A DNA stretch of 37,548 nucleotides from a virus. The DNA is taken from the IMG/VR virus record IMGVR_UViG_3300045988_026391, positions 1 to 37,548 of that record; one strand, 5' to 3'. The translations under genes were made by a program, and so were the position numbers. The notes under the pieces were generated by a model, which saw only the letters and a list, made by a program, of their open reading frames with translations, did not search any database and was not told the DNA's origin. Shown piece by piece: positions 6,081 through 22,170 of this stretch. Each line of letters starts with the position of its first letter. Positions within the stretch are counted from its first letter, which is position 1.

Positions 6081-6305
6081 ATGCATGTTGAAATTTTAAC
6101 GGGAATATTCTCGTTGATTGCAAGCTTGGTTGGTACGTTTGGCGGTATTTTAACAAGTACAAAACTAACTAATTATCAAATCAACGAGCTTAAAAAACAG
6201 GTTGATAAACATAACAGTGTCATCGAACGTACCTTTAAGCTGGAAGAACACAGTAAGTATGTTGATGAACGCATTTCACGATTGGAAAGTGAGACTGAAA
6301 AGTGA
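6081..6305 (+). CDS. Holin-like / lysis-accessory membrane protein (one N-terminal TMD plus a coiled coil)
   Basis: A hydrophobic span (ILTGIFSLIASLVGTFGGILT) is followed by a charged heptad-like region. The gene sits immediately upstream of the holin and lysin. Confidence 0.5.
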   Translation: MHVEILTGIFSLIASLVGTFGGILTSTKLTNYQINELKKQVDKHNSVIERTFKLEEHSKYVDERISRLESETEK

Positions 6306-6499
6306 AAAAGTATTTTGAAAAGTTAGGAGTTAAGGTTTTGAAAACCATGGCACAATCAGCAGTTGGTGTCATTGGTGCCAGTACATTAATTAGTCAGGTG
6401 GATTGGAGGGTTGTTGTTTCAACCGCCCTCTTATCTGGATTAGTTTGTGTACTTACTAATTTGTCTGATTTGAAGGAGGAAGATATTAATGAAAATTAA
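6302..6499 (+). CDS. Holin (two predicted TMDs, charged C-terminus)
   Basis: 65 aa with TMDs [14 protein letters not shown] and [18 protein letters not shown] and the tail [11 protein letters not shown] start in a GTGA overlap with the upstream stop. It overlaps the lysin start by 11 nt. Confidence 0.65.
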
Positions 6500-7763
6500 A
6501 CGATTTTTAACAGGAGCACTTTTGAGTGTTAGCTTATTGTTCCAGTCTGTTGCTTATGCGGCTGTCGGGGATCAAGGTGTAGATTGGTCACGATACCAAG
6601 GCCCTAACGGTGTCTTCGGTTACGGTCATGATAAGTTTGCAATTGCTCAAATTGGCGGTGTTAACGGCGATGGAATTTACAAACAATCAACATATGAAAC
6701 GCAAGTGGCATCAGCAATTGCACAAGGCAAGCGTGCCCACACGTATATTTGGTACCAAGTTGGTAGCAATGCAAGCTTAGGTGAGCAAGTATTAAATACA
6801 TTTTTACCACAGGTTCAAACACCCAAAGGCTCAATCGTAGCGCTTGACTATGAAAGTGGTGCTAGCCCCGATAAACAAGCGAATACTAACGCAATTTTGC
6901 ATGGCATGCGTATGATTAAAGCTGCAGGTTATACACCAATGTATTACAGCTACAAGCCTTTCACGTTAGCTAACGTATATACGGATCAGATTATCCGTGA
7001 GTTCCCTAATTCGCTTTGGATGGCTGCGTACCCAAGTTACAATGTAACTCCAACACCAAATTATGACGTTTTTCCATCAATGGATGGGGTGTCTATCTAT
7101 CAGTTTACCTCGACTTATATCGCAGGAGGTCTTGATGGTAATATCGACCTAACTGGTATCACGGATAATGGTTATACCGCGAACAACAATCCAGCAACAC
7201 AAACGCCAGCAATTTCCCAAGGTCAACAAGCAGAAAGTACTCCTAATGCTGATATTGCTGTAGGAAACCAAGTAAAAGTCAAATTTAGCGCAAACGCATG
7301 GGCTACAGGACAAGCTATTCCAAGCTGGGTCAAAGGCCGAACATACAGCGTCGCACAAGTGTCTGGAAATCGTGTGTTGCTGGCGGATATTAATTCATGG
7401 ATCAACAAATCAGACACTGAAATTTCTTCAGTATCATCTGCACCAATTCAAGCCCCAGCTACTAGCACATATACAGTACGTTCTGGCGATACACTTTCTA
7501 GCATTGCTTCCAAATTTGGAACAAGCTACCAAGCGTTAGCAAGTTTGAATGGTATTTCAAACCCGAACCTCATCTTTGTTGGTCAAACCTTGCGTGTCAA
7601 CGGTTCAGCAAGTACTGGTTCAGTTTACTATACAGTGCGTGTTGGTGATAACTTGTCAGCAATTGCAAGTCGCTACGGAGTAAGCTACCAATCAATCGCA
7701 GCATTGAACGGGCTATCGAACGCCAATTTGATATTCCCAGGTCAAACGCTTAAAATTAAATAA
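6489..7763 (+). CDS. Endolysin: Sec-type signal peptide + GH25 muramidase + SH3b-like linker + 2x LysM
   Basis: The N-terminus [26 protein letters not shown] has n-, h- and c-regions and an AxA site. GVDWSRYQG and ALDYE fit GH25 motifs. Two LysM repeats are present ([43 protein letters not shown] and [43 protein letters not shown]). RBS is GAAGGAGG. Confidence 0.9.
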
Positions 7764-7774
7764 ACACTTTAACA

Positions 7775-7805
7775 CCCCTAGTCTTTGATTACTAGGGGCT
7801 TTTTT
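7775..7805 (+). terminator. Rho-independent terminator after the lysin gene
   Basis: CCCCTAGT (7775-7782) pairs with ACTAGGGG (7791-7798) across an 8-nt loop, followed by C + T6 (7800-7805). Confidence 0.8.
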
Positions 7806-7813
7806 GGTATAAT
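7785..7813 (+). promoter_or_regulatory. Sigma-A-type promoter embedded in the lysin terminator (TTGATT-17-TGgTATAAT)
   Basis: -35 TTGATT at 7785-7790 (terminator loop), 17-nt spacer, extended -10 TG at 7805-7806, TATAAT at 7808-7813. Confidence 0.55.
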
Positions 7814-7819
7814 GAATAA

Positions 7820-7884
7820 GAGGAAACAAGACTCGACTCTTGGCTCATGATGAGTTTATGGCTAGCATTTGCTAGCCCTTTTTT
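7820..7884 (+). ncRNA. Candidate ~65-nt short transcript or attenuated leader, from the 7785 promoter to the 7860 terminator
   Basis: Predicted start is ~7 nt after the -10 and the end is at the T-tract of the second terminator. No ORF longer than 12 codons. Purely predicted. Confidence 0.3.
7860..7884 (+). terminator. Second rho-independent terminator
   Basis: GGCTAGC (7860-7866) pairs with GCTAGCC (7871-7877) across loop ATTT, followed by C + T6 (7879-7884). Confidence 0.7.
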
Positions 7885-7894
7885 GTGCAAAAAT

Positions 7895-8162
7895 AGACCA
7901 GCCGTTTGTGGTTTCGTACTGGTCATGACCAGCTAAATTAGTTAACCAGATAAGTAATGACCAGCAATTACGTGGTCAAAACCAGCTAATGACCATCTTA
8001 CGTGGTCACCTCAAAACGTTGATATATAAGGATTTTATAGCATATATTATATATATAACCATTAAAAATAATATATATTATATATTTATTTATTATATTT
8101 AATTATTATATATTGTTTTTATTTTATTTATATAGCGAAAAAATAAGTGGTTACATGGTCAT
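7895..8162 (+). repeat. Iteron / AT-rich / 16-mer module, copy A (paralogue of 18516-18870)
   Basis: Half-sites (A/T)GACCAGC at 7895, 7926, 7958 and 7979-7986 (AAACCAGC). Palindrome TGGTCATGACCA at 7920-7931. TGACCA-N9-TGGTCA at 7958-7978 and TGACCA-N7-TGGTCA at 7990-8008, both containing TTACGTGGTCA. About 110 bp of almost pure A/T with (TA)n at 8037-8146. GTGGTTACATGGTCAT at 8147-8162. Confidence 0.8.
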
Positions 8163-8205
8163 TTTATAAAAAAATAAAAAATTTTAAAAAAGTTTTATTT
8201 TTCTA

Positions 8206-8234
8206 TTGACTTATAACACAAGATGTTGTATACT
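8206..8234 (+). promoter_or_regulatory. Early promoter P1 (TTGACT-17-TATACT) with an upstream A/T tract
   Basis: -35 at 8206-8211, -10 at 8229-8234, followed by a 5' UTR ending in AAAGGAGAAAGAAATG. Confidence 0.7.
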
Positions 8235-8261: not shown

Positions 8262-8489
8262 ATGAATAAGTATCTAGCTTTTGAAAGAAAACTACCAGAT
8301 GGGTTCCAAAAAATCTATTTCTTTACAAATGGTTTTGGTACATCGGTTGTTAAATTGGAATATACGCCTGGTTTTGAGGTTGCTATCCTAAAAGGTAATA
8401 TCAAGCATTATTCAATAGTAGACATGCCAAGCTACTATCTAACAGATGAAGAATTAGAAGACTTGTTAAAAGAAATTAAAAACTATTAA
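8262..8489 (+). CDS. First early gene, hypothetical 75-aa protein
   Basis: AAAGGAGAAAGAA precedes ATG 8262. The track start at 8223 lies inside the promoter and has no RBS. No motif recognised. Confidence 0.6.
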   Translation: MNKYLAFERKLPDGFQKIYFFTNGFGTSVVKLEYTPGFEVAILKGNIKHYSIVDMPSYYLTDEELEDLLKEIKNY

Positions 8490-9072: not shown

Positions 9073-9294
9073 ATGCAACCAAAAACACTTGGGAGACGCT
9101 TAAGACGTTTGCGAAAAATCAACGGAGAAACACAAAAAGAATTTGCTGAGAAATTTGGCAGACATTACAGAACTGTTCAAAACTGGGAGCTTGGATTATC
9201 TGTACCAGATGTATTTACAGCAGAGAAATTGGCAAAGTATTATAACATGGATATTAAAGAATTAGTAAACGAAGGAGATGATCATGACGAATGA
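9073..9294 (+). CDS. XRE-family helix-turn-helix transcriptional regulator (Cro/Aca-like, 73 aa)
   Basis: LGRRLRRLRKINGETQKEFAEKFGRHYRTVQNWELGLSVPDVFTAEKLAKYYNMDIKEL fits the HTH_3 pattern (..TQ.E.A......T...WE.G...P). AGGAG lies 9 nt upstream. Confidence 0.8.
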   Translation: MQPKTLGRRLRRLRKINGETQKEFAEKFGRHYRTVQNWELGLSVPDVFTAEKLAKYYNMDIKELVNEGDDHDE

Positions 9295-10018
9295 GCTTTG
9301 GAAACCCGTCAAAGGGTATGAAGGATTTTATGAAGTTTCAAGTGAGGGACGTGTACGAAGCGTTGAACGTATAGATGCTCGTGGGCAACATCGAAAAAGT
9401 AAAATATTGAATATCAACAAAGCACAACAAGTTTGTTTTTTCCGAGATGGCAAGCGAAAGAATTATCTAGTTCGAAAATTAGTAGTGGAAGCGTTTTTGG
9501 AAAAACCAAAAGCCAATGAGAAACTAGTGCATGTGGATGGCAATCTAGAAAACAATTGCGTTGAAAACTTAAAATGGCAAAAGAGATCAAAAAGAAAGCG
9601 CAATATCTATAGTTTTGAAGATAATAAAACAGGCGAAGTCTTTGAAGGTTCAATCAGTGATTGTTGCGAAGCTTGGGGATTGACAAAATCGGCTTTGCTT
9701 AACCGAACAAATAGGGGACGTGTAACGAAAACGTTAATTGGTGCGCAAGGATTACGTACATTCACAAACACCGAAACAGGAGAAGAATTTTATGGTACCA
9801 AACAGCAAGCGCTGGCATACTTTCATATTAGCTGGTCAACGCTATATGATCGTATCGATTCTGGATTAATTAAAATGTTTCCAGAGGATGAGGTTACAGA
9901 CGACAGCGAAGATAAAATCTCAGACCCAAAAACAAAGCGATTGTTAACTAAATATTATATTATGAAAATTAATGAATTAGGAAGCTTAGGAGGAAATGAA
10001 TATGACGAAGAATTTTAA
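9284..10018 (+). CDS. Free-standing HNH homing endonuclease 1 (NUMOD4-like N-terminus + HNH_3-like core + two C-terminal HTH-like repeats)
   Basis: ELWKPVKGYEGFYEVSSEGRVRS (NUMOD4-type), VHVDGNLENNCVENLKW (H-N-N core), and two ~40-aa repeats (F.D/N..TGE.F.G.......L.......L..R). GAAGGAG lies 6 nt before ATG 9284. Overlaps the end of the HTH gene. Confidence 0.8.
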   Translation: MTNELWKPVKGYEGFYEVSSEGRVRSVERIDARGQHRKSKILNINKAQQVCFFRDGKRKNYLVRKLVVEAFLEKPKANEKLVHVDGNLENNCVENLKWQKRSKRKRNIYSFEDNKTGEVFEGSISDCCEAWGLTKSALLNRTNRGRVTKTLIGAQGLRTFTNTETGEEFYGTKQQALAYFHISWSTLYDRIDSGLIKMFPEDEVTDDSEDKISDPKTKRLLTKYYIMKINELGSLGGNEYDEEF

Positions 10019-11289: not shown

Positions 11290-11337
11290 TCTGTTATAAC
11301 AAAAAAATAAAGTTTTTTATAAAAAAGATAAAAAATG

Positions 11338-11872: not shown

Positions 11873-11888
11873 CAGATGAGGATTGCAA

Positions 11889-12407
11889 ATGAGTGAAGAA
11901 TGGAGAGACGTGGTCGGATTTGAGGGGCTGTATCAAGTTAGCAGTGAGGGCCGTGTAAAGAGTTTGAAACGAAATGAAGAACGTTTTTTAAAGCCAAGCA
12001 TAGACAGAGGTGGTTATTTGCTTGTTGGCTTATGCGCTGGAGGAAAACAAAAAACTTATAAAGTTCACAGACTAGTCTGCCAAGCGTTCCATGAAAATCC
12101 AGAAGGAAAGCCACAAGTTAACCATATCAATGAAGATAAGACAGACAACAGAGTTGAAAATCTCGAATGGTGCACAGCAAGAGAAAATTGCAACCACGGA
12201 ACACGTAACGAGCGTTCTGCAAAAAATATAAGCAAAGCTCTTAGCAAACCAATTGGTCAATATACATTAGATGGAAAGCTTGTAAAAACATGGGTATCAC
12301 TTTCTGAAGTCGAAAGACAAACTGGATTCAGTTTCGGCAATATAAGTCAAGTCGCCAACGGGAAACGTAAAAAGGCTTATAACTTCATCTGGAAATACGT
12401 TGATTAG
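11889..12407 (+). CDS. Free-standing HNH homing endonuclease 2
   Basis: EEWRDVVGFEGLYQVSSEGRVKS (NUMOD4-type), VNHINEDKTDNRVENLEW (HNH_3-type), and a C-terminal IENR-like segment (TLDGKLVKTWVSLSEVERQTGFSFGNISQV). GAGGA lies 7 nt before ATG 11889. Confidence 0.85.
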   Translation: MSEEWRDVVGFEGLYQVSSEGRVKSLKRNEERFLKPSIDRGGYLLVGLCAGGKQKTYKVHRLVCQAFHENPEGKPQVNHINEDKTDNRVENLEWCTARENCNHGTRNERSAKNISKALSKPIGQYTLDGKLVKTWVSLSEVERQTGFSFGNISQVANGKRKKAYNFIWKYVD

Positions 12408-12416
12408 GAGGTTTAA

Positions 12417-12881
12417 ATGACTGTTATTCTATCTATTGATCCAAGCTCTAACAAGGCGGAAAAGTCAAATACTGGGATTGTAGTAATCGAAAATGGCAAG
12501 CTGATTAACTATTGGGTAGCCAGTTATGGCGTGCGAGGTTTTAAAGAATGGTTTGATAACAATTATTCTAACATTGAATATGATGTGGCTGTTTTTGAAC
12601 ACTTCGAAGCTAGAGACAATTCAAAATCTAAAGACAACACAGTTATCGAAACAATCGAAGAAATAACAAAATTAATTCCTGATATTAAACCATTCAGGAA
12701 TGGCGGGTATAAATCAGATGTTCCAGATAGCCTTTTAAAGGCGCTAGATCTTTGGAAGTTCGGAAAATCACACCACCAGGACGTAAGGGCAGCAGCAAGA
12801 TTGGCTTTATTTTACGCCATGAGGACTGACATAGAAGACTTTATAAATGGAGTAGGTAAGGAATTATATGAAAGAATTTAA
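12417..12881 (+). CDS. RuvC-like Holliday-junction resolvase (phage type)
   Basis: ILSIDPSSN...TGIVVI (N-terminal Asp), FEHFE (acidic), and a HHQDVRAAARLALFY C-terminal helix, consistent with an RNase H-fold resolvase. It lies between recombination and replication genes. Confidence 0.5.
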   Translation: MTVILSIDPSSNKAEKSNTGIVVIENGKLINYWVASYGVRGFKEWFDNNYSNIEYDVAVFEHFEARDNSKSKDNTVIETIEEITKLIPDIKPFRNGGYKSDVPDSLLKALDLWKFGKSHHQDVRAAARLALFYAMRTDIEDFINGVGKELYERI

Positions 12882-14055
12882 AGCTCGCAGATGGCAAAAA
12901 GAGGCGATTAAACGCTCAATAAACGACACCAGTGGTGGAATATTCCTCGAAGCGGCTGGAGGCCGTGGGAAAACGTTATGCACGTTAGAAATTGCCAAGC
13001 AAAAAAAAGCCAAAAAGGTTATCATTGTTAATAATAGATTAAGCATTTTAAATGGCTGGGAAAAAGCTTACAAGGACTTTGGCTATGATAAGTCGTTTGA
13101 ATTAGTTACAATTACGGATAGGAAACTCTCTAATTTAGTCAAAGAAGGCTCTAAATTAGCTTGTGACGTATTAATTCTCGATGAATGGCAAAATATAAGC
13201 TCTAATAGCTGTGTTAGTGCATACGCTAAAATAAAGCGCGATTACACAATCGGTTTAAGTGCTACACCGATTAGAAAGAAAGGGCAGAATTTTTATCCAC
13301 TCGAGAAAACACTTTGGAAGAAAGCAAACCCGAATAGAAAGTTCGATTGGCAGCTTGCACATGGCGCGATGATTTATGACCCGTACTCATATTCCAAAAC
13401 CAAATGGAAAGACTTCAAGAATTACGAATCTTATGTTTCTAATTTACCAAATTTTATGCGGTACGAAGAAGTTGAGAGAATCGAGGATGCAGAAGAAAAC
13501 AATGGCTTTGAGATTAAATTTTTCAAAAAAACGTTACCAGTCGCAAATCCTAAGGCGCTTGAAATGTTGAATACTTATAACGTTGTAACGAAGAATAACA
13601 AGTCTGCTATGAGTAAACTGTCATTTGGTAAAATAGCGTTTGAAAGGATTCTTAATCAGACTGGATTTGATATTGACTTCCCTAAGTTAAAAGCAGTTAA
13701 CGAAGACACACCAATGTTGAAAGAAGTTGATAGACTAATCAATAAAGCGCCTCACGAGATGCTTATCGTGACTAAAAGTGTGCAAATAGCTAACATTATA
13801 AAAGAGAGGAACCCAAAAATTGGAATTTGGACTGGCGCTACTAAAGAGTTACTTGACGCACCTGTTGTCGTTGCGACATCTCAAACGCTAGGTGTTGGGG
13901 TTGATGGTCTTCAGGATAAATTTAAAACGCTTGTTGTCCTTGACCCAGTAGACGAAGACAGCGGTGAATATGACGACTATCGTCAATTACTTTGGCGAAT
14001 AACAGGAAGCCGTCAAAAACACGATGTCAATATTTTAGAATTCTATTTTAAATAA
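12868..14055 (+). CDS. Superfamily-2 (DEAD/SNF2-like) DNA helicase
   Basis: Walker A EAAGGRGKT, motif II LDEWQ, motif III SATP. Confidence 0.75.
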   Translation: MKEFKARRWQKEAIKRSINDTSGGIFLEAAGGRGKTLCTLEIAKQKKAKKVIIVNNRLSILNGWEKAYKDFGYDKSFELVTITDRKLSNLVKEGSKLACDVLILDEWQNISSNSCVSAYAKIKRDYTIGLSATPIRKKGQNFYPLEKTLWKKANPNRKFDWQLAHGAMIYDPYSYSKTKWKDFKNYESYVSNLPNFMRYEEVERIEDAEENNGFEIKFFKKTLPVANPKALEMLNTYNVVTKNNKSAMSKLSFGKIAFERILNQTGFDIDFPKLKAVNEDTPMLKEVDRLINKAPHEMLIVTKSVQIANIIKERNPKIGIWTGATKELLDAPVVVATSQTLGVGVDGLQDKFKTLVVLDPVDEDSGEYDDYRQLLWRITGSRQKHDVNILEFYFK

Positions 14056-14080
14056 TTTTAAACTTTTTTCAAAAAAATTG

Positions 14081-14136: not shown

Positions 14137-14766
14137 ATGACTGTTTACAAAAAACTTATCGAAGTTCAAAAAGAACTCAAAGCACCTAAGAACCAGAGGA
14201 ATACTTTCGGGAATTATAATTATCGCTCTTGTGAAGACATTCTCGAAGCGTTGAAACCAGTTTTATCAGAACATGGAGCGACTGTCTTTATCTCAGATAA
14301 GCCAGTGGTTAAAGAAAATTTATGGTCTTATATCGAGGCTACAGCAACTTTTGTTGATACTGAATCAGGTGACTCTGTTAGTGTGACAGCATACGCAAGG
14401 GAAGCAGATACGAAGAAAGGTATGGACGTTTCTCAAATTACTGGTTCAGCCAGCTCTTATGCTAGAAAGTACGCTCTGAACGGGTTGTTTCTTATCGATG
14501 ATTCGGTTGACGCAGATACAGATGAGCACCAAAAGATTACTGGCGGTGAATCACAAGGTTCAAATAGGAAGTTCTCAAAAGACGATGTAACTGCCTTGCG
14601 TTTGGATCTAATTAAAGTAGCAATGGCTACTAAGAAAGATGTTAACGACTTAGAGTCATGGGTTGCTCAACAAATCGGATTGAATAACTTCGAATCAATT
14701 AATCAATCAAGCTTTGCAAAAGCAAATGCGCTAGTAAAACAATTGATGGCAAAAGCTAAAGTTTAA
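14137..14766 (+). CDS. erf: Erf-family single-strand annealing recombinase
   Basis: KAPKNQRNTFGNYNYRSCEDILEALKPVLSEHG and GSASSYARKYALNGLFLIDDSVDADTD match the ERF-family pattern as I recall it. Confidence 0.7.
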   Translation: MTVYKKLIEVQKELKAPKNQRNTFGNYNYRSCEDILEALKPVLSEHGATVFISDKPVVKENLWSYIEATATFVDTESGDSVSVTAYAREADTKKGMDVSQITGSASSYARKYALNGLFLIDDSVDADTDEHQKITGGESQGSNRKFSKDDVTALRLDLIKVAMATKKDVNDLESWVAQQIGLNNFESINQSSFAKANALVKQLMAKAKV

Positions 14767-14820: not shown

Positions 14821-15390
14821 ATGAAAGAAATTTGGAAGCTAGTTGTTGGGTATGAGGGGCTCTATGAAGTATCAAACATTGGTAGAGTGAGGAGCTTAGC
14901 CAGAATCGTTGAATGTAATGATGGCCGCAAGCGTAAAATAAAAGATAGAACACTCAAAAGCTCCCGTAACAGTGGTGGTTATTCTGGAATCACTCTTCAC
15001 AAAGACGGTTTTACAAAATCCGTTAATATTCACCGTATTGTCGCCGAAGCATTTGTTCCTAACCCCTTAGAAAAGGAAGAGGTGAACCACAAGGACGAAA
15101 ACCCAAGCAACAATCACGCAAACAACTTAGAATGGGTGACTCACAAAGAAAATTTAAATTACGGCAAGCGTTCGGAACGGGCGAGGAAGGCAATAGTTGA
15201 AGCACAAGGAAGGGCAGTGCGGCAGCTATCTAGAGATGGTGAGTTAGTTGCAGAATACGAAAGTTTGTCTGCGGCTTGTAATGCAACAGGCACTCATGTG
15301 TCTAATATAGTAAAGTGCGCCAAGGGTATATACAAAACAGCTGGCGGGTACATTTGGAAATATAAAAAAGAAACAATGGAGGAAAAATAA
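14821..15390 (+). CDS. Free-standing HNH homing endonuclease 3, inserted between erf and ssb
   Basis: EIWKLVVGYEGLYEVSNIGRVRS, VNHKDENPSNNHANNLEW, and C-terminal RQLSRDGELVAEYESLSAACNATGTHVSNI. Confidence 0.85.
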   Translation: MKEIWKLVVGYEGLYEVSNIGRVRSLARIVECNDGRKRKIKDRTLKSSRNSGGYSGITLHKDGFTKSVNIHRIVAEAFVPNPLEKEEVNHKDENPSNNHANNLEWVTHKENLNYGKRSERARKAIVEAQGRAVRQLSRDGELVAEYESLSAACNATGTHVSNIVKCAKGIYKTAGGYIWKYKKETMEEK

Positions 15391-15881: not shown

Positions 15882-16043
15882 TTGAAAGAGAGACGAAAAG
15901 TTAAGCATTACAGAATGTACATGCAAAGTATGAATTGGAAGTATGGTGGTTATTCCGATTATGAGTGGGACTTTTATAGGAAAGTTCAAAAATCATGGAA
16001 ATACCAAAGTAAAAGAAAGAGACAATATAAAGGAGAAAACTAA
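15882..16043 (+). CDS. Possible small, very basic protein (53 aa, TTG start)
   Basis: GGGGTGG lies before TTG 15882. Open to TAA at 16041-16043, which overlaps the prim-pol ATG (TAATG). K/R/Y/W-rich. The start is uncertain. Confidence 0.35.
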   Translation: MKERRKVKHYRMYMQSMNWKYGGYSDYEWDFYRKVQKSWKYQSKRKRQYKGEN

Positions 16044-16870
16044 TGGAGAATATGTTACGATTTGCGCTAGGTTATGCTCGAAGAGGGTTTGATGTTGTTC
16101 CGTTGATACCAAATACTAAACGCCCAATACAGAAGTTTGCTGACAGACCACCAATGACTGAAGAAGAAATTATAGAGGTATGGACAAAGACACCAAATGC
16201 AAACATTGCCTTAAAGACAATAGATTTTTTTGTAGTTGATATTGACACGCACGGAGAAGCAAACGGATACCAATCATTAAAAAACTGGGAACACGTCAAA
16301 AAGATACCTCGCACAAGCCAAGTTATCAGTGCTAGTGGCGGTAAGCACTTATATTTTAAGAAGCCAGTTGGGTTCGAATTACCGCAAAAAATTGCATTTT
16401 TAGACGGTGTAGACATCAAAGCTCATGTTAATAATTATGTCGTAGCGCCACCAAGCGTTATCGGTGATTCATTTTATAAGTGGGATATGGATAATTCTCT
16501 GGATAACCTAGAGTTTGCCATGGCTACAGATGAATTTGTCAAGGCGATTAAGGAGACAGATGGTATTGAGGACGAGAAAAACCAATACAAAGGTGCTCTT
16601 AGCAAGTTTAAAGGAGACGGTCAGAAGGTTTCTAAAGTGACACAAGCTGTCAATGAGTGTCTTAAAGGGCTAGGTGGTGAAGGCGCTCGGAATAATACAG
16701 TGGCAAGTTATGTTGGTAAACTTATTTCGATGGGTATTGAAAAAGAAATTGTTGTTGTATTAGTCAATATCATGAACAGCAAGAGCCAAAAGCCACTTGG
16801 AGCTAAGGAACTACACAATACAATTGAGTCTATGTACAATACAGATAGAAGATATAGTAAAACGCAGTAA
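16043..16870 (+). CDS. Bifunctional primase-polymerase (prim-pol) domain protein
   Basis: FALGYARRGFDVVPLIPNTKRP, FVVDIDTHG (DxD) and SGGKHLYF motifs are typical of the archaeo-eukaryotic-type prim-pol N-terminal domain. Confidence 0.75.
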   Translation: MENMLRFALGYARRGFDVVPLIPNTKRPIQKFADRPPMTEEEIIEVWTKTPNANIALKTIDFFVVDIDTHGEANGYQSLKNWEHVKKIPRTSQVISASGGKHLYFKKPVGFELPQKIAFLDGVDIKAHVNNYVVAPPSVIGDSFYKWDMDNSLDNLEFAMATDEFVKAIKETDGIEDEKNQYKGALSKFKGDGQKVSKVTQAVNECLKGLGGEGARNNTVASYVGKLISMGIEKEIVVVLVNIMNSKSQKPLGAKELHNTIESMYNTDRRYSKTQ

Positions 16871-16898
16871 ATAAATTTAAACTTTTTTCAAAAAAGTG

Positions 16899-16926
16899 TT
16901 GACAATATATAAAAATATGATATACT
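16899..16926 (+). promoter_or_regulatory. Promoter P5 (TTGACA-16-TGaTATACT) with the conserved cassette
   Basis: 16876-16904 reads TTTAAACTTTTTTCAAAAAAGTGTTGACA. Extended -10 TG at 16918-16919, TATACT at 16921-16926. Confidence 0.75.
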
Positions 16927-17127: not shown

Positions 17128-18477
17128 ATGGGAGAAGTAGTTAAAATGGAAAAAACAGTTAGCAATTCGTCTTTAAAACTGGATAAGAACGGAATTCCAG
17201 TTAGCAATTCTATTTATAACGTTAAAACGTTACTTTTAAACGCAGATGTATTCGCTGATAATTTAGCATTCAACGAGTTCACGCAAGAGCCAGAGGTAAT
17301 CAACGACTTTTATTTGAATGGCACTTTAATTCCAAAAGGCTCAATCAAACCAAGTTTTGAGGATATCCTTTCAGAATATTTTGAAACAGAGCTTGATGTC
17401 GTGTTCAAACCAACTGCAATCACTGGAGCGCTCAATATTTTTTGGGATACTAAGAAGTACAATCCAGTTAAGGAGTATATGGAACAAGCCTTAGAGAGCT
17501 GGGACGGAAAAGAACGACTCAAAACAGTGTTTAATTACTGGCTTGGTGCTGAAGTTAATGAAACGACAGAAACTATTGCCAAGGTATTCTTTACAAGCGC
17601 CGTAGCCAAGGTTTACGAGCCACTCACAAAGGTGGATACAGTCCTAGACTTAGTCGGTGGGCAAGGCGTTGGGAAGACTTCATTCTTAGCTAAGATTGCC
17701 CGTGGCTGGTATACTTCCAACGCCATTAGCTTTACGGATAAGGACTCTTATAACGTTATGCTTAAAGCTTTAATCGTGAATGATGACGAGATGACAGCTT
17801 CTAAACGAATGAATTTTGAGGAAACCAAGTCTTTTATTTCTAAGACGGTTTTGGAGTTCCGCAAATCTTATGATAGACGTGGTGCTTCATACGCAAAGAA
17901 CTTTGTTATTGCACGAACAACAAACAATATTGAATATTTAAAAGACAACACTGGTGACCGACGATTTATGCCGATTTTAGTGAATCCAGAAGAGCAAAAG
18001 AAGCATCCAATGCAGATGACTGAAGAGGATATCATCCAAATTTGGGGCGAAGCGGTTTCACTTTATAAAAATGGATATGACTTAGACAGTTTTGATAAAC
18101 TGGATACAGAGCGTATTGAATACCAAGAAAACTTTAAGTACATCGACCCAATGGTTGAAGAAATTAACCAATATTTAGATTTGCTACTACCTGAAAACTT
18201 CAGTGAGTTAAATATCACACGACAAAGACAGCTAGCACAAAGCCAGCTTTACGGCTTTAAATACCAGTTGGTAGAAGATGGCACCTATGAACTAACTACT
18301 AAGCAAGATTTTGTGACTTTGAAGCAAATCGCTTACAACGTCTTTAATAAAGAAGCAACGGACAAAAAAATAATTAGCAGAATTAAAATTTGGATGGATA
18401 ACAATCCAGATTTTAAGAATACACGCAAAGCAGTGAGAGGCGGATATATTCGTGGGTATGAGCGAATCGAAAAGTAG
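17128..18477 (+). CDS. VirE-family (P4-type) primase-associated helicase / NTPase
   Basis: Walker A GGQGVGKTS and Walker B LIVNDDEM, followed by ..TTNN..YLKDNTGDRRFMPI, as in virulence-associated protein E-type phage primases. Confidence 0.75.
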   Translation: MGEVVKMEKTVSNSSLKLDKNGIPVSNSIYNVKTLLLNADVFADNLAFNEFTQEPEVINDFYLNGTLIPKGSIKPSFEDILSEYFETELDVVFKPTAITGALNIFWDTKKYNPVKEYMEQALESWDGKERLKTVFNYWLGAEVNETTETIAKVFFTSAVAKVYEPLTKVDTVLDLVGGQGVGKTSFLAKIARGWYTSNAISFTDKDSYNVMLKALIVNDDEMTASKRMNFEETKSFISKTVLEFRKSYDRRGASYAKNFVIARTTNNIEYLKDNTGDRRFMPILVNPEEQKKHPMQMTEEDIIQIWGEAVSLYKNGYDLDSFDKLDTERIEYQENFKYIDPMVEEINQYLDLLLPENFSELNITRQRQLAQSQLYGFKYQLVEDGTYELTTKQDFVTLKQIAYNVFNKEATDKKIISRIKIWMDNNPDFKNTRKAVRGGYIRGYERIEK

Positions 18478-18515: not shown

Positions 18516-18870
18516 AAAAGTGACCACCAACTACGTGGTCATCGTAAAAAGTGACCACCAAACACGTGGTCATAATTCAATTTTTTTAGCAAAAAACCAT
18601 TAAATGACCAGCAAATTTAAAAAGTGACCAGCTTACGTGGCCGCCTCTTGAAGCCAGTTATACCAATGGTTTTGGCTATTTTATGGTAAAATAGTGACCA
18701 GCTTACGTGGTCATCGTAAAACCCAATAGTATCAAGGGTTTAAGCTATATAATATATAATATAACCACTAAATATAATATATATAATATATTTTAATTAT
18801 TATATATAATATTTATATATTGTTTTTATTTTATTTATAAGAGGTAAAAAAATGGTGGTTACGTGGTCAT
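18516..18870 (+). repeat. Iteron / AT-rich / 16-mer module, copy B (candidate origin and/or regulated promoter region)
   Basis: Four ~31-bp units start at 18516, 18547, 18619 and 18689, reading AAA(A/T)AGTGACCA(C/G)C..ACGTGG(T/C)C... The first two are exactly tandem. About 105 bp of A/T with (TA)n lies at 18745-18850. GTGGTTACGTGGTCAT lies at 18855-18870. Confidence 0.8.
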
Positions 18871-18879
18871 AAGTATAAA
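18855..18879 (+). promoter_or_regulatory. Conserved 16-mer followed after 3 nt by TATAAA; candidate factor-dependent middle promoter
   Basis: The same arrangement occurs at 8147-8170 (16-mer + 2 nt + TATAAA). There is no recognisable -35. It is the only promoter-like element upstream of gene 18908. Confidence 0.4.
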
Positions 18880-18907
18880 ATATGCAAACATACAATAGGA
18901 GAATAGA

Positions 18908-19315
18908 ATGGATAAAATGATTATTTTGAAAGAAGAAGAATACTTGGAACGCTGCTGGCAAGCAGAAACATGGAAGGAACTAGCTGGGGTAATTACTAAT
19001 TACACCTGGATTGCTACAGATGGGAATTCAGTAAGTATGCAACGTAAAATCACACGCACTAAACAGTATCTGAAGAACCGTATCTTGACTGAGAGCAAAA
19101 TCAGGAAACTAACTGGTGAGAGATTTGAGAAGCGTAAGGAACAAATTAAATTAACGTTTGTCATGGAAATTGATGAACAGCTTGGGAAAGCTACTCAACT
19201 TTGGCATTACAACAAGAAAGCTGATGAGGCTGGAATTCCAGAGAAAGAACGCATGGAATATTTTGTGAACAAAGCAACCAAGAAAGCAGAAAAATATTTT
19301 AAACTTTTTCAATAA
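18908..19315 (+). CDS. Hypothetical protein (135 aa), first middle gene
   Basis: AGGAG RBS. No motif recognised. The C-terminal codons (KYFKLFQ*) double as the upstream half of promoter cassette P6. Confidence 0.55.
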   Translation: MDKMIILKEEEYLERCWQAETWKELAGVITNYTWIATDGNSVSMQRKITRTKQYLKNRILTESKIRKLTGERFEKRKEQIKLTFVMEIDEQLGKATQLWHYNKKADEAGIPEKERMEYFVNKATKKAEKYFKLFQ

Positions 19316-19320
19316 AATAG

Positions 19321-19348
19321 TTGACAAATTAAATTATTTTGTTATAAT
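19321..19348 (+). promoter_or_regulatory. Promoter P6 (TTGACA-16-TGtTATAAT) with the conserved cassette
   Basis: 19297-19326 reads TTTTAAACTTTTTCAATAAAATAGTTGACA. Extended -10 TG at 19340-19341, TATAAT at 19343-19348. Confidence 0.8.
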
Positions 19349-19379
19349 GTATATATAAAGTAAAACAAAGGAGAGATGG

Positions 19380-19709
19380 ATGAATTTACTAGATAAAAAA
19401 CAGTATCAAGCTATCTTAATTAATTCAATCGGGAATGCTGAACGGTTTAAATTCTTGGTTGAAAATAATACATTTAAAAACTATGCTGGTGATCCAGTTG
19501 GAAAGGTTGTAAAGCTAAAAGCGACCGTAGACGTCCTAGAAACGTTTCTAAGCGTGGTTAAACATGGTAACGGAGAATTTGCCACGGAAGTCAAAGAGGA
19601 GCTTACAGAGCTTCTGAGAGCCTATCAGAGCGATTTAGAAAAAGCACGTGATAAGAAAGAGTATCATAAGAATTATTACAAAGAGCACAAAGGACAAAAA
19701 GGAGAATAG
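19380..19709 (+). CDS. Hypothetical protein (109 aa)
   Basis: AAAGGAGAG RBS. No motif recognised. Confidence 0.55.
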   Translation: MNLLDKKQYQAILINSIGNAERFKFLVENNTFKNYAGDPVGKVVKLKATVDVLETFLSVVKHGNGEFATEVKEELTELLRAYQSDLEKARDKKEYHKNYYKEHKGQKGE

Positions 19710-19711
19710 CT

Positions 19712-20029
19712 ATGTTTGGCAAGAAGAAAGAAACTAAGGAAGAAAAATTTGAAACATTGGTAGAACGTGCAGGTCTTGCAGGTTTGTTGAATGAAGCTAG
19801 CTCAAAGTTGTTTAAACGAGTGCATGACTCTAAAAAAGGCGTTGGGTTAATGGAAACATCAAATATCCTGACGGGTTCCGAACGTAACTGCCTTCGTACG
19901 ATTGTGGCTCAAAACAGTGTCATTCGAGAACAAAACGATATGATCATCCAACTGCTGGCACAAATTGCAAATAATACAAAACAAAGCGAAGGCATTAAAG
20001 TAGAGGTACGAGATGGACAAAGTTACTAA
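19712..20029 (+). CDS. Hypothetical protein (105 aa)
   Basis: ATG lies 2 nt after the previous stop, with an RBS inside the upstream gene (AAAGGAGAA). Confidence 0.55.
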   Translation: MFGKKKETKEEKFETLVERAGLAGLLNEASSKLFKRVHDSKKGVGLMETSNILTGSERNCLRTIVAQNSVIREQNDMIIQLLAQIANNTKQSEGIKVEVRDGQSY

Positions 20030-20351
20030 ACAATTTTATGAAGCCATGAAAGATGTTTTGCCACAACTTATTTTGAGTGATTCAAATTACAAGCGCTATC
20101 AAGTGGCTAGAGCTAAAGAAATTATTCCTCCTTTTGAATTGTTAATTGAATTGGTTGATTATATCCCAGCTGATATTGCCTTATCTGTTTTAAGAGCTAA
20201 AGAAGATTTTATTAATTACGGCTGGGAAATGGATGTGTATTTATACGCTATCAAGAAATTTGATACCGAGGAAACAAAACGACTTCGCCAAAAGCGCCGC
20301 AAAGCCGAACGTGATGCAAAGATTGCTAAATTAGGCTTAGATGAAGACTAA
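20013..20351 (+). CDS. Hypothetical protein (112 aa) with a basic C-terminal helix
   Basis: Overlaps the upstream gene by 17 nt. C-terminus KRLRQKRRKAERDAKIAKL. Confidence 0.5.
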   Translation: MDKVTKQFYEAMKDVLPQLILSDSNYKRYQVARAKEIIPPFELLIELVDYIPADIALSVLRAKEDFINYGWEMDVYLYAIKKFDTEETKRLRQKRRKAERDAKIAKLGLDED

Positions 20352-20362
20352 AGGGGAAAAAG

Positions 20363-21529
20363 ATGGAAAGTACTGAAAGAGATGAAATTATCAAGTCAAT
20401 GCTTGACCAAAATAAAAGCTGGTCTGAAATTGCTGAAGCTACTGGATACACACGCGCTGGAATCCGTTCATATGCTTACCGACAAGAATGGTATAAAGAC
20501 TTTAAGCGTGAAATTGGACGTCATTCAAATGAAGAACACAGAGACAGCTCAAGTTCTGTCACAAGTGAAATTATTCTGCAACGCAACGCAAAGGAATTGT
20601 TCACTGAAGCTGAACTACTGGAATTACACGGGTTTGACCCTAAGGAATTCAAAATTAAACATGTAACGTCAAACGAATGGACTACCCCACAAGATGAAGG
20701 CCAGTTTTATAACTACCAATCAAAAATTAGTGTAGTTCCTATTGCAGACGATGAAAAAACGCAAACAGAATTTTTTGAAGCACTTAAAGCAGAAGTGAAA
20801 CCCATCACGGTGAAACAAACGAGATTCGGAAAGAATAACGTCATTATCGCCTTGTCTGACATGCACTTCGGTGAAACAAAGATGCAAGATTTACAAGACA
20901 AACTAGTTGAAATAACTCAAACGTTGCAAAAAGGTTATAATAAAGTCGTCATCATGAACGCTGGTGACTTCTTCCATTCTGACGATATGTTCAGCAGTCG
21001 AACAATCTCTGGAACAGTATTAGAAACGGTCGACATGGTTAGCGCTGTCAATGATGCAAAGGCATTTATGGACGTTGTATTCAAATCTGCGCTTGAAAAT
21101 TCAAATCAAGTCGAATATCAATATGTAGCAGGAAATCATTCATCGTTCGAGTATTTCTTTAATGAGTATCTAATTGTTAAATATCCCGAAGCTACCATTG
21201 TCCAACATAACGAACTTTCAACCGCTTTCATGCTTGATAACGTTCTGATTGCGCTTGCTCATGGTCACAAAATTAAAAAGAATAATTTATCACAAGTTAT
21301 TTCATTTGAACACAGAGAGCTATGGGGACGTGCTTCAGAGGTACATTGCTTCACTGGTCACTATCACCAATTAGAAAGCCAGTCATTAAACGGTGTTATT
21401 GTTCACCAACTCGGAACACCAAAAAAAGCTGACACTTATGAACGCCAAAATGGTTGGATTGCAAGCCGTAAGTTAATTCAGCTATTCGAATTTGATTCGG
21501 ATAAGATGAAAACAGTCTATTACATTTAA
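20363..21529 (+). CDS. N-terminal HTH domain fused to a calcineurin-like metallophosphoesterase
   Basis: HTH-like KSWSEIAEATGYTRAGIRSYAYRQ. Metallophosphatase motifs in order: SDMHFG (DxH), AGDFFH (GD), AGNHS (GNH), LAHGH (H), TGHYH (GHxH). Confidence 0.7.
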   Translation: MESTERDEIIKSMLDQNKSWSEIAEATGYTRAGIRSYAYRQEWYKDFKREIGRHSNEEHRDSSSSVTSEIILQRNAKELFTEAELLELHGFDPKEFKIKHVTSNEWTTPQDEGQFYNYQSKISVVPIADDEKTQTEFFEALKAEVKPITVKQTRFGKNNVIIALSDMHFGETKMQDLQDKLVEITQTLQKGYNKVVIMNAGDFFHSDDMFSSRTISGTVLETVDMVSAVNDAKAFMDVVFKSALENSNQVEYQYVAGNHSSFEYFFNEYLIVKYPEATIVQHNELSTAFMLDNVLIALAHGHKIKKNNLSQVISFEHRELWGRASEVHCFTGHYHQLESQSLNGVIVHQLGTPKKADTYERQNGWIASRKLIQLFEFDSDKMKTVYYI

Positions 21530-21534
21530 CAAGC

Positions 21535-21559
21535 GAAGAGCGTTAGCTCTTTCTTTTTT
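21535..21559 (+). terminator. Rho-independent terminator ending the middle unit
   Basis: GAAGAGC pairs with GCTCTTC across loop GTTA, followed by T6A. Confidence 0.75.
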
Positions 21560-21560
21560 A

Positions 21561-21589
21561 TTTACAAAAATGTTGATAAATGGTAACAT
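21561..21589 (+). promoter_or_regulatory. Weak, extended -10 promoter candidate (TTTACA-17-TGgTAACAT) before the late operon
   Basis: -35 at 21561-21566, TG at 21581-21582, -10 TAACAT at 21584-21589. Clearly poorer than P1-P6. Confidence 0.4.
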
Positions 21590-21595
21590 ATTTAT

Positions 21596-21664
21596 AAATA
21601 GATGCCGTAAAGCATACGAATTAAAGCACAATATCAACGGGCGGTGTCATCACCGCTTTTTTTT
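21596..21664 (+). ncRNA. Candidate ~70-nt terminated leader or short RNA upstream of terS
   Basis: Runs from the predicted start to the T8 tract of the 21641 terminator. No ORF. Purely predicted. Confidence 0.3.
21641..21664 (+). terminator. Rho-independent terminator 24 nt upstream of terS
   Basis: GCGGTG pairs with CACCGC across loop TCAT, followed by T8. Confidence 0.75.
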
Positions 21665-21687
21665 AATACACGAAAGGGAAGAAAAGG

Positions 21688-22170
21688 ATGCAGAAATACG
21701 AAGAACGAATTAAACGGCTAGAAAAAGAAATGACAAAGCAAGAAATCAAGTTTGCTAACGAATATCTGGCAAACGGATACAATGTAACTAGAGCATATGA
21801 AGCAATCGGGACATCTAAGAGCCGTGGGGCTATGTATCAAGCTGGTGCAAGAATCAAGCGCAAGCCACGGGTTAAGGAATACTTAGAACTTAAATTTAAT
21901 CGAATGATTAACGAACAAGAAATCACAGCTGAAGACGTAGTCAAACGATTGGTAGAGATTGCATTTGCAAGACCACAGGAAGGTATCAAGACTGAGTTTG
22001 ATAATCTAGAGAATGTAGTTAAAGAAGATAAAACATACTCTTACACACCGTCTCAAGATGCGCAACTTAGAGCGCTTGAAATGCTTGGTAAAAACTTTAA
22101 AATGTTCACTGATAAGATTGAAACAGATGTTAATATTGAGAGCGTGGTGTTTAAAGATGACATTGATTAA
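21688..22170 (+). CDS. terS: Terminase small subunit
   Basis: FANEYLANGYNVTRAYEAIG..SRGAMYQAGARIKRKPRVKEYL matches the Terminase_2-type N-terminal HTH. Lies immediately upstream of and overlaps terL. Confidence 0.8.
   Translation: MQKYEERIKRLEKEMTKQEIKFANEYLANGYNVTRAYEAIGTSKSRGAMYQAGARIKRKPRVKEYLELKFNRMINEQEITAEDVVKRLVEIAFARPQEGIKTEFDNLENVVKEDKTYSYTPSQDAQLRALEMLGKNFKMFTDKIETDVNIESVVFKDDID

Follow-up and report, generated by a model that had tools for sequence, protein, structure and literature searches.

A candidate second SaPI-type replication-origin module next to the first early promoter in Streptococcus phages of the P738 group

Two iteron and AT-rich modules bracketing the early region

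The sequence analysed here (the window) is the whole of the IMG/VR record IMGVR_UViG_3300045988_026391, positions 1–37,548, to which all coordinates below refer. Bases 1–55 of the window recur exactly at 37494–37548, so that it represents a complete, circularly closed genome of 37,493 bp, and by BLAST comparison with phages in GenBank it belongs to the P738 group of Streptococcus siphophages. Our subject is an origin-like module at 7895–8162 (copy A), situated between the lysin gene and the first early promoter, whose -35 box begins 45 bp downstream of its end, together with a related module at 18516–18870 (copy B), situated behind a helicase gene. The two copies are 10.7 kb apart, directly oriented, and bracket the whole early/replication gene block.

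Copy A begins with an array of short repeats (iterons). The outermost ones, AGACCA-N19-TGGTCA (7895–7931, + strand), are a degenerate form of the TGACCA-N17-TGGTCA found in the relatives, seven of which possess orthologous sites, and overlap a 12-bp back-to-back palindrome, TGGTCATGACCA (7920–7931). Next comes a variant iteron, TAACCA (7943–7948, - strand), within a conserved block, TTAACCAGATAAG, whose core TTAACCAG is invariant in the eight aligned copy A orthologues, and then two iteron palindromes, TGACCAgcaattacgTGGTCA (TGACCA-N9-TGGTCA, 7958–7978) and TGACCAtcttacgTGGTCA (TGACCA-N7-TGGTCA, 7990–8008), both of which contain TTACGTGGTCA. Between them lies a degenerate half-site, AAACCAGC (7979–7986, - strand), where most relatives keep AAAACCAGC. 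A conserved linker, AAAACGTTGAT...TATAG (8009–8055, + strand), which harbours a junction between A-type and B-type sequence (see below), leads from the array to the AT tract (8062–8147, + strand; 86 nt, 94% A+T), a putative DNA unwinding element. The tract is bounded on the left by the inner left iteron TAACCA (8056–8061, - strand), in place of which relatives of the P738 clade have TGACCAcaTGACCA, and on the right by a tandem iteron pair with an 8-bp period, TGGTTAcaTGGTCA (8148–8161, + strand), inverted with respect to the left iterons and contained in the terminal 16-mer GTGGTTACATGGTCAT (8147–8162). Altogether copy A comprises 10 TGGTNA-type sites, and its AT tract sits off-centre, near one end of the iteron array. 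The original prediction, made from the letters of the window alone, had named the palindrome TGGTCATGACCA, the N9 and N7 palindromes and the terminal 16-mer, all of which we found where it had placed them; of the four TGACCAGC-type half-sites that it had listed, those at 7926 and 7958 are exact, while those at 7895 (AGACCAGC) and 7979 (AAACCAGC) turned out to be degenerate.

Copy B starts with its first iteron at 18521, after a 43-nt gap from the helicase stop codon (ending at 18477). Its array (18521–18713) comprises two N9 palindromes (18521–18541 and 18552–18572), a single TGACCA (18605), TGACCA-N7-TGGCCG (18625–18643) and TGACCA-N7-TGGTCA (18695–18713), and is followed by the inner left iteron TAACCA (18762–18767, - strand), an AT tract of 88 nt with 92% A+T (18768–18855, + strand) and the right tandem pair TGGTTAcgTGGTCA (18856–18869, + strand), with 12 TGGTNA-type sites in total. 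Copy B also exhibits an internal repeat with a 70-bp spacing (18622–18652 and 18692–18722), in each unit of which an iteron palindrome precedes a conserved hairpin-like element, CCAnTAGTAnCAAGGGTTT (e.g. AAACCC...GGGTTT at 18718–18741); a related block, AAAACGTTGAT..., occupies the equivalent place in copy A. This element could be a single-strand initiation signal or a site for another factor.

The original prediction had proposed that the two copies are paralogous, a view that a formal alignment showing nothing but low-complexity AT bias would have refuted. The local alignment of 8019–8162 with 18725–18870 confirmed the paralogy, with 118 of 137 positions identical (86%) and a score of 84, compared with 28.2 ± 3.5 for 1000 dinucleotide-preserving shuffles (z = 15.8). 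With the boxes removed, the AT tract by itself still reaches z = 10.2 against dinucleotide shuffles, so the similarity is due to homology and not to AT composition. Over the whole modules the column identity amounts to 74% (MAFFT); the iteron-bearing left arms share a common vocabulary and are not collinear. The TGACCA/TGGTCA hexamers are strongly concentrated, with 16 of the 34 copies in the genome falling within the 657 bp (1.75% of the genome) of the two modules (binomial P = 1.3e-19). The window has three matches to TGACCA-N9-TGGTCA (0.05 expected), one at 7958–7978 and two in copy B, and two to TGACCA-N7-TGGTCA (0.04 expected), at 7990–8008 and at 18695 in copy B. Moreover, the least stable 100-bp windows of the genome are the two AT tracts, with nearest-neighbour free energies (dG) of -88.0 (copy A) and -88.2 kcal/mol (copy B), 5.7 standard deviations (sd) from the genome mean (-127.7, sd 6.9), the next lowest window having -102.7. 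Elsewhere, seven TGACCA/TGGTCA hexamers lie within 900 bp (323–1206) of the open reading frame (ORF) 222–1349, mostly in the context TTGGTCAA; only one of them fits the extended iteron consensus given below, and this cluster probably reflects coding bias or chance.

The helicase and the origin plan of SaPIs

The gene that precedes copy B (17128–18477, + strand) encodes a 449-aa VapE-type helicase of superfamily 3 (SF3) with a C-terminal winged-helix-like domain, the candidate iteron-binding initiator. The protein matches PF05272 (E = 1.2e-62) and a single solved structure, 7PDS (phmmer, E = 1.2e-38), which is the complex of DNA with Rep1 from the staphylococcal pathogenicity island (SaPI) SaPI1. 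The AlphaFold2 model, built on 42 homologues (mean pLDDT 84.7), ends in two helices (398–406 and 413–424) and a β-hairpin (429–446), which make up the winged-helix-like domain, and Foldseek superimposed the whole model on 7PDS over 447–453 columns (TM-score 0.68–0.73, E about 1e-30). By this prediction, the helicase is homologous in structure to SaPI1 Rep1 over its full length. Upstream of it, and separated from it by a single 75-aa ORF, lies the gene of a primase composed of Prim-Pol and PriCT_1 domains (16043–16870, + strand), the equivalent of the SaPI gene pri.

In SaPIs, pri precedes rep and the origin (ori) follows directly behind it. The Rep protein initiates replication, acts as the helicase and needs no loader; with its C-terminal winged-helix domain it reads penta- or hexanucleotide iterons, 6–12 of which surround an AT-rich region in the ori, with at least two on each side and the two sides pointing in opposite directions (PMC9371898). 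The phage has the same order of primase, SF3/VapE-type helicase and origin-like sequence. Sequence and predicted structure reveal a helicase of the SF3/VapE type, predicted to be hexameric and self-loading, with a C-terminal winged helix, the primase gene lies upstream, and in both modules an AT-rich centre separates two sets of short hexanucleotide iterons with opposite orientations, namely the tandem pair on the right and several sites on the left. The position immediately 3' of rep is occupied by copy B only, copy A being 9 kb upstream of rep. Copy B hence fits all sequence-level features of a SaPI ori, and copy A all of them except position. In other respects the phage departs from the SaPIs: the element is carried by a complete virulent siphophage and not by a satellite, many of its iterons form palindromic pairs with variable spacers, and a second complete module is present 10.7 kb away, outside the replication cluster, unlike in SaPIs, which have one ori each (PMC9371898).

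The other known arrangement to be considered is that of SPP1, a lytic siphophage of Firmicutes, in which two modules made of repeats and an AT-rich unwinding element, oriL and oriR, are located about 13 kb apart on a 44-kb circle and are both bound by gp38. Stalling of forks at gp38-bound oriR has been proposed to trigger a switch to concatemer synthesis that uses a single-strand annealing protein, an exonuclease, a resolvase and an SSB (PMC3485210). The likeness is in the two similarly organised modules, one in the replication region and one outside it. On the other hand, SPP1 relies on gp38, the gp39 loader and the DnaB-type gp40, while the candidate initiator here is an unrelated Rep, predicted to load itself; oriL lies inside gene 38 and oriR among the late genes, and the sequences are not similar. 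The search for SPP1-type initiation genes revealed no DnaB-type helicase or loader among 20 ORFs of the early region (Pfam), ten of which were also compared with PHROG; what the scans did return is a ResIII/DEAD helicase besides the VapE helicase and the Prim-Pol primase. With neither a DnaB-type helicase nor a loader among the scanned early ORFs, the phage resembles SPP1 in function only.

Conservation and genomic setting of the modules

A common plan of the module was read from 15 related genomes. The P738-group relatives include isolates from S. thermophilus (P738 and D4446), S. lutetiensis (Mushu and CSJC), S. equinus (Taco) and S. pasteurianus (SG586P1 and SG586P3), i.e. the GenBank isolates come from at least four host species. 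Both modules are present in all ten P738-type genomes seen across both positions (seven GenBank records and three metagenomic contigs); these are the window, P738, D4446, Mushu, CSJC, Taco, SG586P1 and three metagenomic contigs with helicases 89–96% identical to that of the window, whereas SG586P3, which matches SG586P1 in BLAST, is outside this count. The helicases of the ten genomes have diverged down to about 80% identity, and both modules are judged, from their distribution, to be ancestral to the group. In the common plan, several TGACCA-N7..9-TGGTCA palindromes come first, with conserved hexamers and drifting spacers. They are followed by the inner left iteron, which is a pair, TGACCAcaTGACCA, in the copy A of the P738 clade and a single TAACCA in the window (8056 and 18762), and by an AT tract of 84–88 nt with 88–97% A+T (the length holding for all 24 modules). 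The right end is a tandem pair on the opposite strand with an 8-bp period, ttACGTGGTCAcgTGGTCA in the relatives and GTGGTTAC(A/G)TGGTCA in the window (8148–8161 and 18856–18869). The pattern TGGT[CTA]A-NN-[TC]GGT[CTA]A occurs at module right ends only, twice in each genome seen across both positions, and a matrix of 103 sites yields the iteron consensus TTAnG-TGGT(C>A,T)A-T. As far as column conservation can tell, selection acts on the iterons, since their columns are conserved above the rest of the module (0.915 versus 0.789 in copy A and 0.918 versus 0.804 in copy B).

Measured start to start, the inner left iteron and the right pair are 90–94 nt apart in each of the 24 P738-type modules, whether A or B, while A-type and B-type cores of the P738 clade are only about 55% identical. 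That a common length constraint persists across such diverged sequences argues that the two copies share a geometric constraint and do the same physical job. The window itself deviates from this divergence: its copy A core shares 79% identity with its own copy B, 70–72% with the copy B of the P738 clade and only 56% with the copy A of that clade, while its copy A left arm is still orthologous to copy A of the relatives (about 77%). Such B-like copy A cores are present also in the contigs UViG 058181 and ERR12816291_858. A B-type core was probably copied into the A position in the lineage of the window, where it evidently serves, as if the cores were interchangeable. Pairwise global alignment weakens the contrast with the P738 clade (86% versus 73%), and a single older exchange of cores and a faster divergence of copy A in the P738 clade are both conceivable. 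Ongoing concerted evolution of A and B within each genome was also considered and is not supported, as the copy A of the window is equally close to the copy B of its sister genomes and to its own.

Position 5 of the iteron varies among the relatives. One contig exhibits TTACCA/TGGTAA in every palindrome of copy B while its right end keeps TGGTCAtgTGGTCA, and another has TTACCA/TGGTA(A/G) in copy A and TGACCA/TGGTCA in copy B (the loci of these observations and of the following one are L010 11385–11745, L141 840–1110 and L011 100–150). In L011, which begins at a contig end, no more than about 35 nt of AT tract can be seen in copy A, and an apparent minus-strand gene start lies upstream of the tract.

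Five more distant helicase homologues (42–50% identity) are each accompanied by one module, directly after the genes of the Prim-Pol and VapE proteins. Their iterons are different (GATGTAACA, CGGTAAC, CGGTTAC, CGGTTGCA and GATGTCACA), and the plan is the same: palindromes, a left iteron, an AT-rich region of roughly 100–130 nt and a right tandem pair with a period of 7–8 bp. All five loci are on phage-like contigs, three of which include an integrase and a repressor/cro switch, and no second iteron cluster was found in the 17–21 kb seen per locus, including, in those three, the stretch from the integrase to repressor/cro. The architecture appears to be general and the duplication specific to the P738 group. 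The comparison of one against two copies in related genomes, suggested with the original prediction, hence gave both modules in the ten P738-type genomes and one in each of the five distant relatives. The remark that two copies are unusual holds with respect to the latter; within the P738 group two copies are the rule, and SPP1 with its oriL and oriR is a precedent. Between the iteron classes, the C-terminal domain of the helicase is 22–33% identical, the N-terminal domain 28–38% and the ATPase core 53–64%, a divergence that is consistent with, and no proof of, a role of the C-terminal domain in specificity. The shift of iteron sequence with the helicase lineage in the five distant homologues is an indirect pointer to specific binding of the iterons by Rep.

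Several searches for further occurrences were less informative. A scan for more copy A loci with the pattern AAAAGTTT-N6-10-CTATTGAC gave chance matches only, the pattern being too unspecific, and searches with the two genes that follow the modules added one short contig to those already sampled. The exact right-end 17-mer has 113 chance matches in the species-representative bacterial genomes, none with an AT-rich tract upstream, and no satellite or prophage sharing the P738-type origin was detected with this exact 17-mer in those genomes. The GenBank records of the relatives annotate no origin at the modules, the P738 record having only promoters and terminators there.

All large ORFs of the window are on the + strand. 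The structural genes occupy the stretch from 21688 through the window's end and onwards from 1 to about 5500, followed by the holin (6302–6499) and by the lysin with a GH25 and two LysM domains (6489–7763), which flanks copy A on the left. The lysin gene is followed by two canonical terminators (7775–7798 and 7860–7877, the latter also delimited as 7860–7884), and copy A is downstream of both. A TG-extended promoter-like site, TTGATT-17-TATAAT (7785–7813), lies inside the first of them and ahead of the second; it could give rise to a roughly 60-nt transcript or to a hydrophobic ORF of 16 codons (region 7785–7896), and is absent from the closest relative, L008. The early region spans from the first early promoter, a sigma-70-type TTGACT-17-TATACT (8206–8234, + strand), to about 21530. 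This promoter adjoins copy A, outside the module, and has an annotated orthologue in the GenBank record of P738. In the same record another promoter overlaps the right iteron pair; we dropped this candidate, as its -35 box is not conserved in the window and the spacing in copy B is too short. The first gene after the early promoter encodes 75 aa (8262–8489) and matches, among the related genomes examined, only L008; the relatives instead possess an unrelated hydrophobic mini-ORF of about 20 codons, MWTMIIFLLSLGAFALLLDN, right after the promoter (L002 21113–21175, with equivalents in L003–L007). Further early genes encode a helix-turn-helix (HTH) protein of the XRE type (HTH_3, 9073–9294), conserved in all relatives, the ResIII/DEAD helicase (12868–14055), an ERF annealing protein (14137–14766) and a protein of the metallophosphatase family (20363–21529), annotated in the relatives as a DNA repair exonuclease. 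Three homing-endonuclease-like genes with NUMOD4 domains (9278–10018, 11883–12407 and 14821–15390), two of which also contain HNH, have a patchy distribution among the relatives. Directly after copy B lies an ORF of 135 aa (18908–19315), with 84–96% identity in the relatives among the best-conserved early/middle proteins, for which no match was found in Pfam, PHROG or PDB. The proteins encoded after copy A and copy B were compared and are unrelated, not paralogous. The whole window contains no Rfam family and no tRNA.

Both modules are located at mosaic boundaries. For the GH25/LysM lysin to the left of copy A, the related genomes contain no homologue, one metagenomic relative having a CHAP and SH3 lysin there, and the megablast similarity to the P738 clade begins within copy B, at 18633 (stretch 18633–21998).

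The other five strong early promoters (11338, 14081, 15824, 16899 and 19321) are without TGGTCA sites. Four of them, as well as the first early promoter, exhibit an A/T palindrome, ACTTTTTTCAAAAAAGT or a variant of it, just upstream of the -35 box (14060–14079, 16879–16899, 19301–19318, about 11305–11325 and, on the + strand, adjoining copy A and outside the module, 8176–8195; 14 matches versus 4.1 expected). It is a second, distinct operator-like or upstream-promoter (UP)-like element, and may be the target of the XRE protein.

Possible functions of copy A

The predicted canonical origin is copy B, directly downstream of the helicase gene. The paralogy, the architecture, its conservation, the relationship of the helicase to Rep1 and the weak duplex of the two AT tracts are all shown here; given these, we favour, at a probability of about 0.6, the explanation that copy A is a second replication-origin module of the SaPI type, at which Rep would bind, melt the DNA and allow the module to fire. 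The phage's own VapE helicase, with its C-terminal winged-helix domain, is the probable reader of the module. By analogy with SaPIs, hexamers of this Rep would be recruited via their winged-helix domains to the oppositely oriented iterons flanking the 86-nt tract, would melt the tract and load themselves without a separate loader, and the Prim-Pol primase would then prime the synthesis. The origin-like character of the module, already put forward in the original prediction, draws support from the relationship of the helicase to SaPI1 Rep1, from the SaPI ori architecture and from the conservation in all members of the group. As to what copy A does within the phage, it may be a second firing origin, a Rep-bound barrier like SPP1 oriR or a Rep-occupied damper of the early promoter.

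Several observations weigh against a firing origin at copy A, or against parts of that reading. On the left side of the tract in the window only the single degenerate TAACCA abuts it, with no pair, and the other left-pointing iterons of copy A are 48–130 bp further out. The iteron class tracks the phylogeny of the whole helicase, and probably that of other early genes, so the C-terminal domain is not singled out as the reader of the iterons. The distant relatives were covered over 17–21 kb each, and a second module elsewhere in them is possible. Finally, the GC skew rises monotonically, all genes being on one strand, and is uninformative on the use of origins.

A comparable pair of loci is known from the satellite phage P4, where the same short iterons are present at ori and crr, several kb apart, and are bound by the alpha protein, a primase-helicase of a related superfamily. 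The crr of P4 is, unlike ori, not itself an origin, and P4 differs from the phage discussed here also in its Gram-negative host, its octamer iterons and the fusion of primase and helicase.

The P4 and SPP1 examples lead to the alternative that survives best, although we regard it as rather unlikely, namely that copy A binds Rep and does not initiate: it would be a fork barrier for the transition from theta to concatemeric replication, as proposed for SPP1 oriR and gp38, an enhancer that acts from afar by looping to the true origin, in the manner of P4 crr, or a site through which Rep, once accumulated, would lower the activity of the adjacent early promoter. The spacing of the two modules resembles that in SPP1 (10.7 kb in 37.5 kb here, about 13 kb in 44 kb there), the phage encodes the ERF annealing protein and the exonuclease-like metallophosphatase, the end of copy A is only 45 bp from the -35 box of the early promoter, and in the lineage of the window the left iteron pair has decayed to one variant site. 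However, a pure roadblock or operator needs neither an AT tract kept at 84–88 nt in A as in B, nor one that is the least stable DNA in the genome; the copy A of the P738 clade also possesses the more canonical two iterons on each side.

Less probable still is that both modules are operator arrays for a small transcription factor, e.g. the XRE-type HTH protein (9073–9294), which would govern the promoter beside each module, with the AT tract as an upstream promoter element. The iteron sites are palindromic, all relatives keep an HTH_3 protein, each module has a gene behind it and the P738 record annotates the promoter overlapping the right iteron pair of copy A, all of which would suit such arrays. 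However, the spacing of the half-sites varies (N7, N8, N9, N17 and N19), which is unlike the rigid dimer of an HTH protein; the other five strong early promoters lack iterons and four of them carry the different A/T palindrome; in the temperate relatives the iterons are found only after the helicase gene and are absent from the repressor/cro switch region; and the genes behind A and B are unrelated. The idea of binding arrays for one early or middle regulator, raised in the original prediction, is disfavoured by the promoters without iterons, by the variable spacing and by the fact that iteron identity tracks the helicase lineage, and nothing in the analysis supports the partition-like role mentioned beside it.

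It is very improbable that copy A is a functionless duplicate or a recombination scar at a module boundary, kept because it is recent or neutral. The mosaic boundaries at both modules (the lysin without a homologue in the relatives, the similarity that sets in at 18633) and the apparent exchange of the copy A core for a B-type core in one lineage would agree with a scar, yet copy A is present in all ten genomes, across helicases diverged to about 80% identity, its iterons are kept better than their surroundings and the length of its tract is fixed to ± 2 nt. To transcription terminators or RNA hairpins we give almost no credence, since the palindromes, several of which are flagged by a terminator scan and which fold at -7 to -11 kcal/mol (z -2.8 to -4.1), are only moderate hairpins with no U-tract directly after the stems, copy A is already behind two canonical terminators, the hexamers occur also as tandem direct repeats and single copies, and there is no Rfam match.

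Returning to copy A as a second origin module, its position between the lysis genes and the first early promoter is the one where the temperate relatives carry their lysogeny module, and this coincidence suggests that copy A was acquired when the lineage turned virulent. One may go further and speculate, though we consider it doubtful, that a duplicated Rep-dependent origin took the place of the lysogeny module and so made the P738 group obligately lytic, and that the paired origins couple the occupancy by Rep to the shut-off of the early promoter and, in addition, either fire together and amplify the early region first or stall forks from copy B for an ERF-dependent switch to concatemers. If true, this would be the first dual-origin control circuit described for a self-loading SF3 helicase.

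Among streptococcal phages, an origin-like element has been described for the Sfi21 type of S. thermophilus phages, a 302-bp non-coding sequence in the replication module of a dairy phage, which confers phage-encoded resistance (PER). The likeness to copies A and B is by description only; Sfi21 belongs to a different phage group with a different replication module and has a single element, and a review calls the replication module of P738 unique among dairy phages. The SaPI type of origin and the presence of two origins in a lytic phage (SPP1) are both already known. What appears to be new is the combination: an origin for a self-loading helicase that occurs twice, throughout a phage group, under the same length constraint and with evidence of exchange of cores.

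The modules extend the SaPI-type origin with its self-loading helicase and iterons from satellites to complete phages, with at least six iteron specificities, which offer a natural series for the analysis of how a winged-helix domain reads its iteron. The dual layout provides a second system, mechanistically unrelated to SPP1, in which the role of a second origin in a small lytic phage may be addressed. Phages of the P738 group attack S. thermophilus dairy starters as well as streptococci of the gut and rumen; cloned phage origins are proven for starter resistance (the Sfi21 element), so the P738 modules, now defined, would be directly usable, and the existence of two copies matters for the design of decoys.

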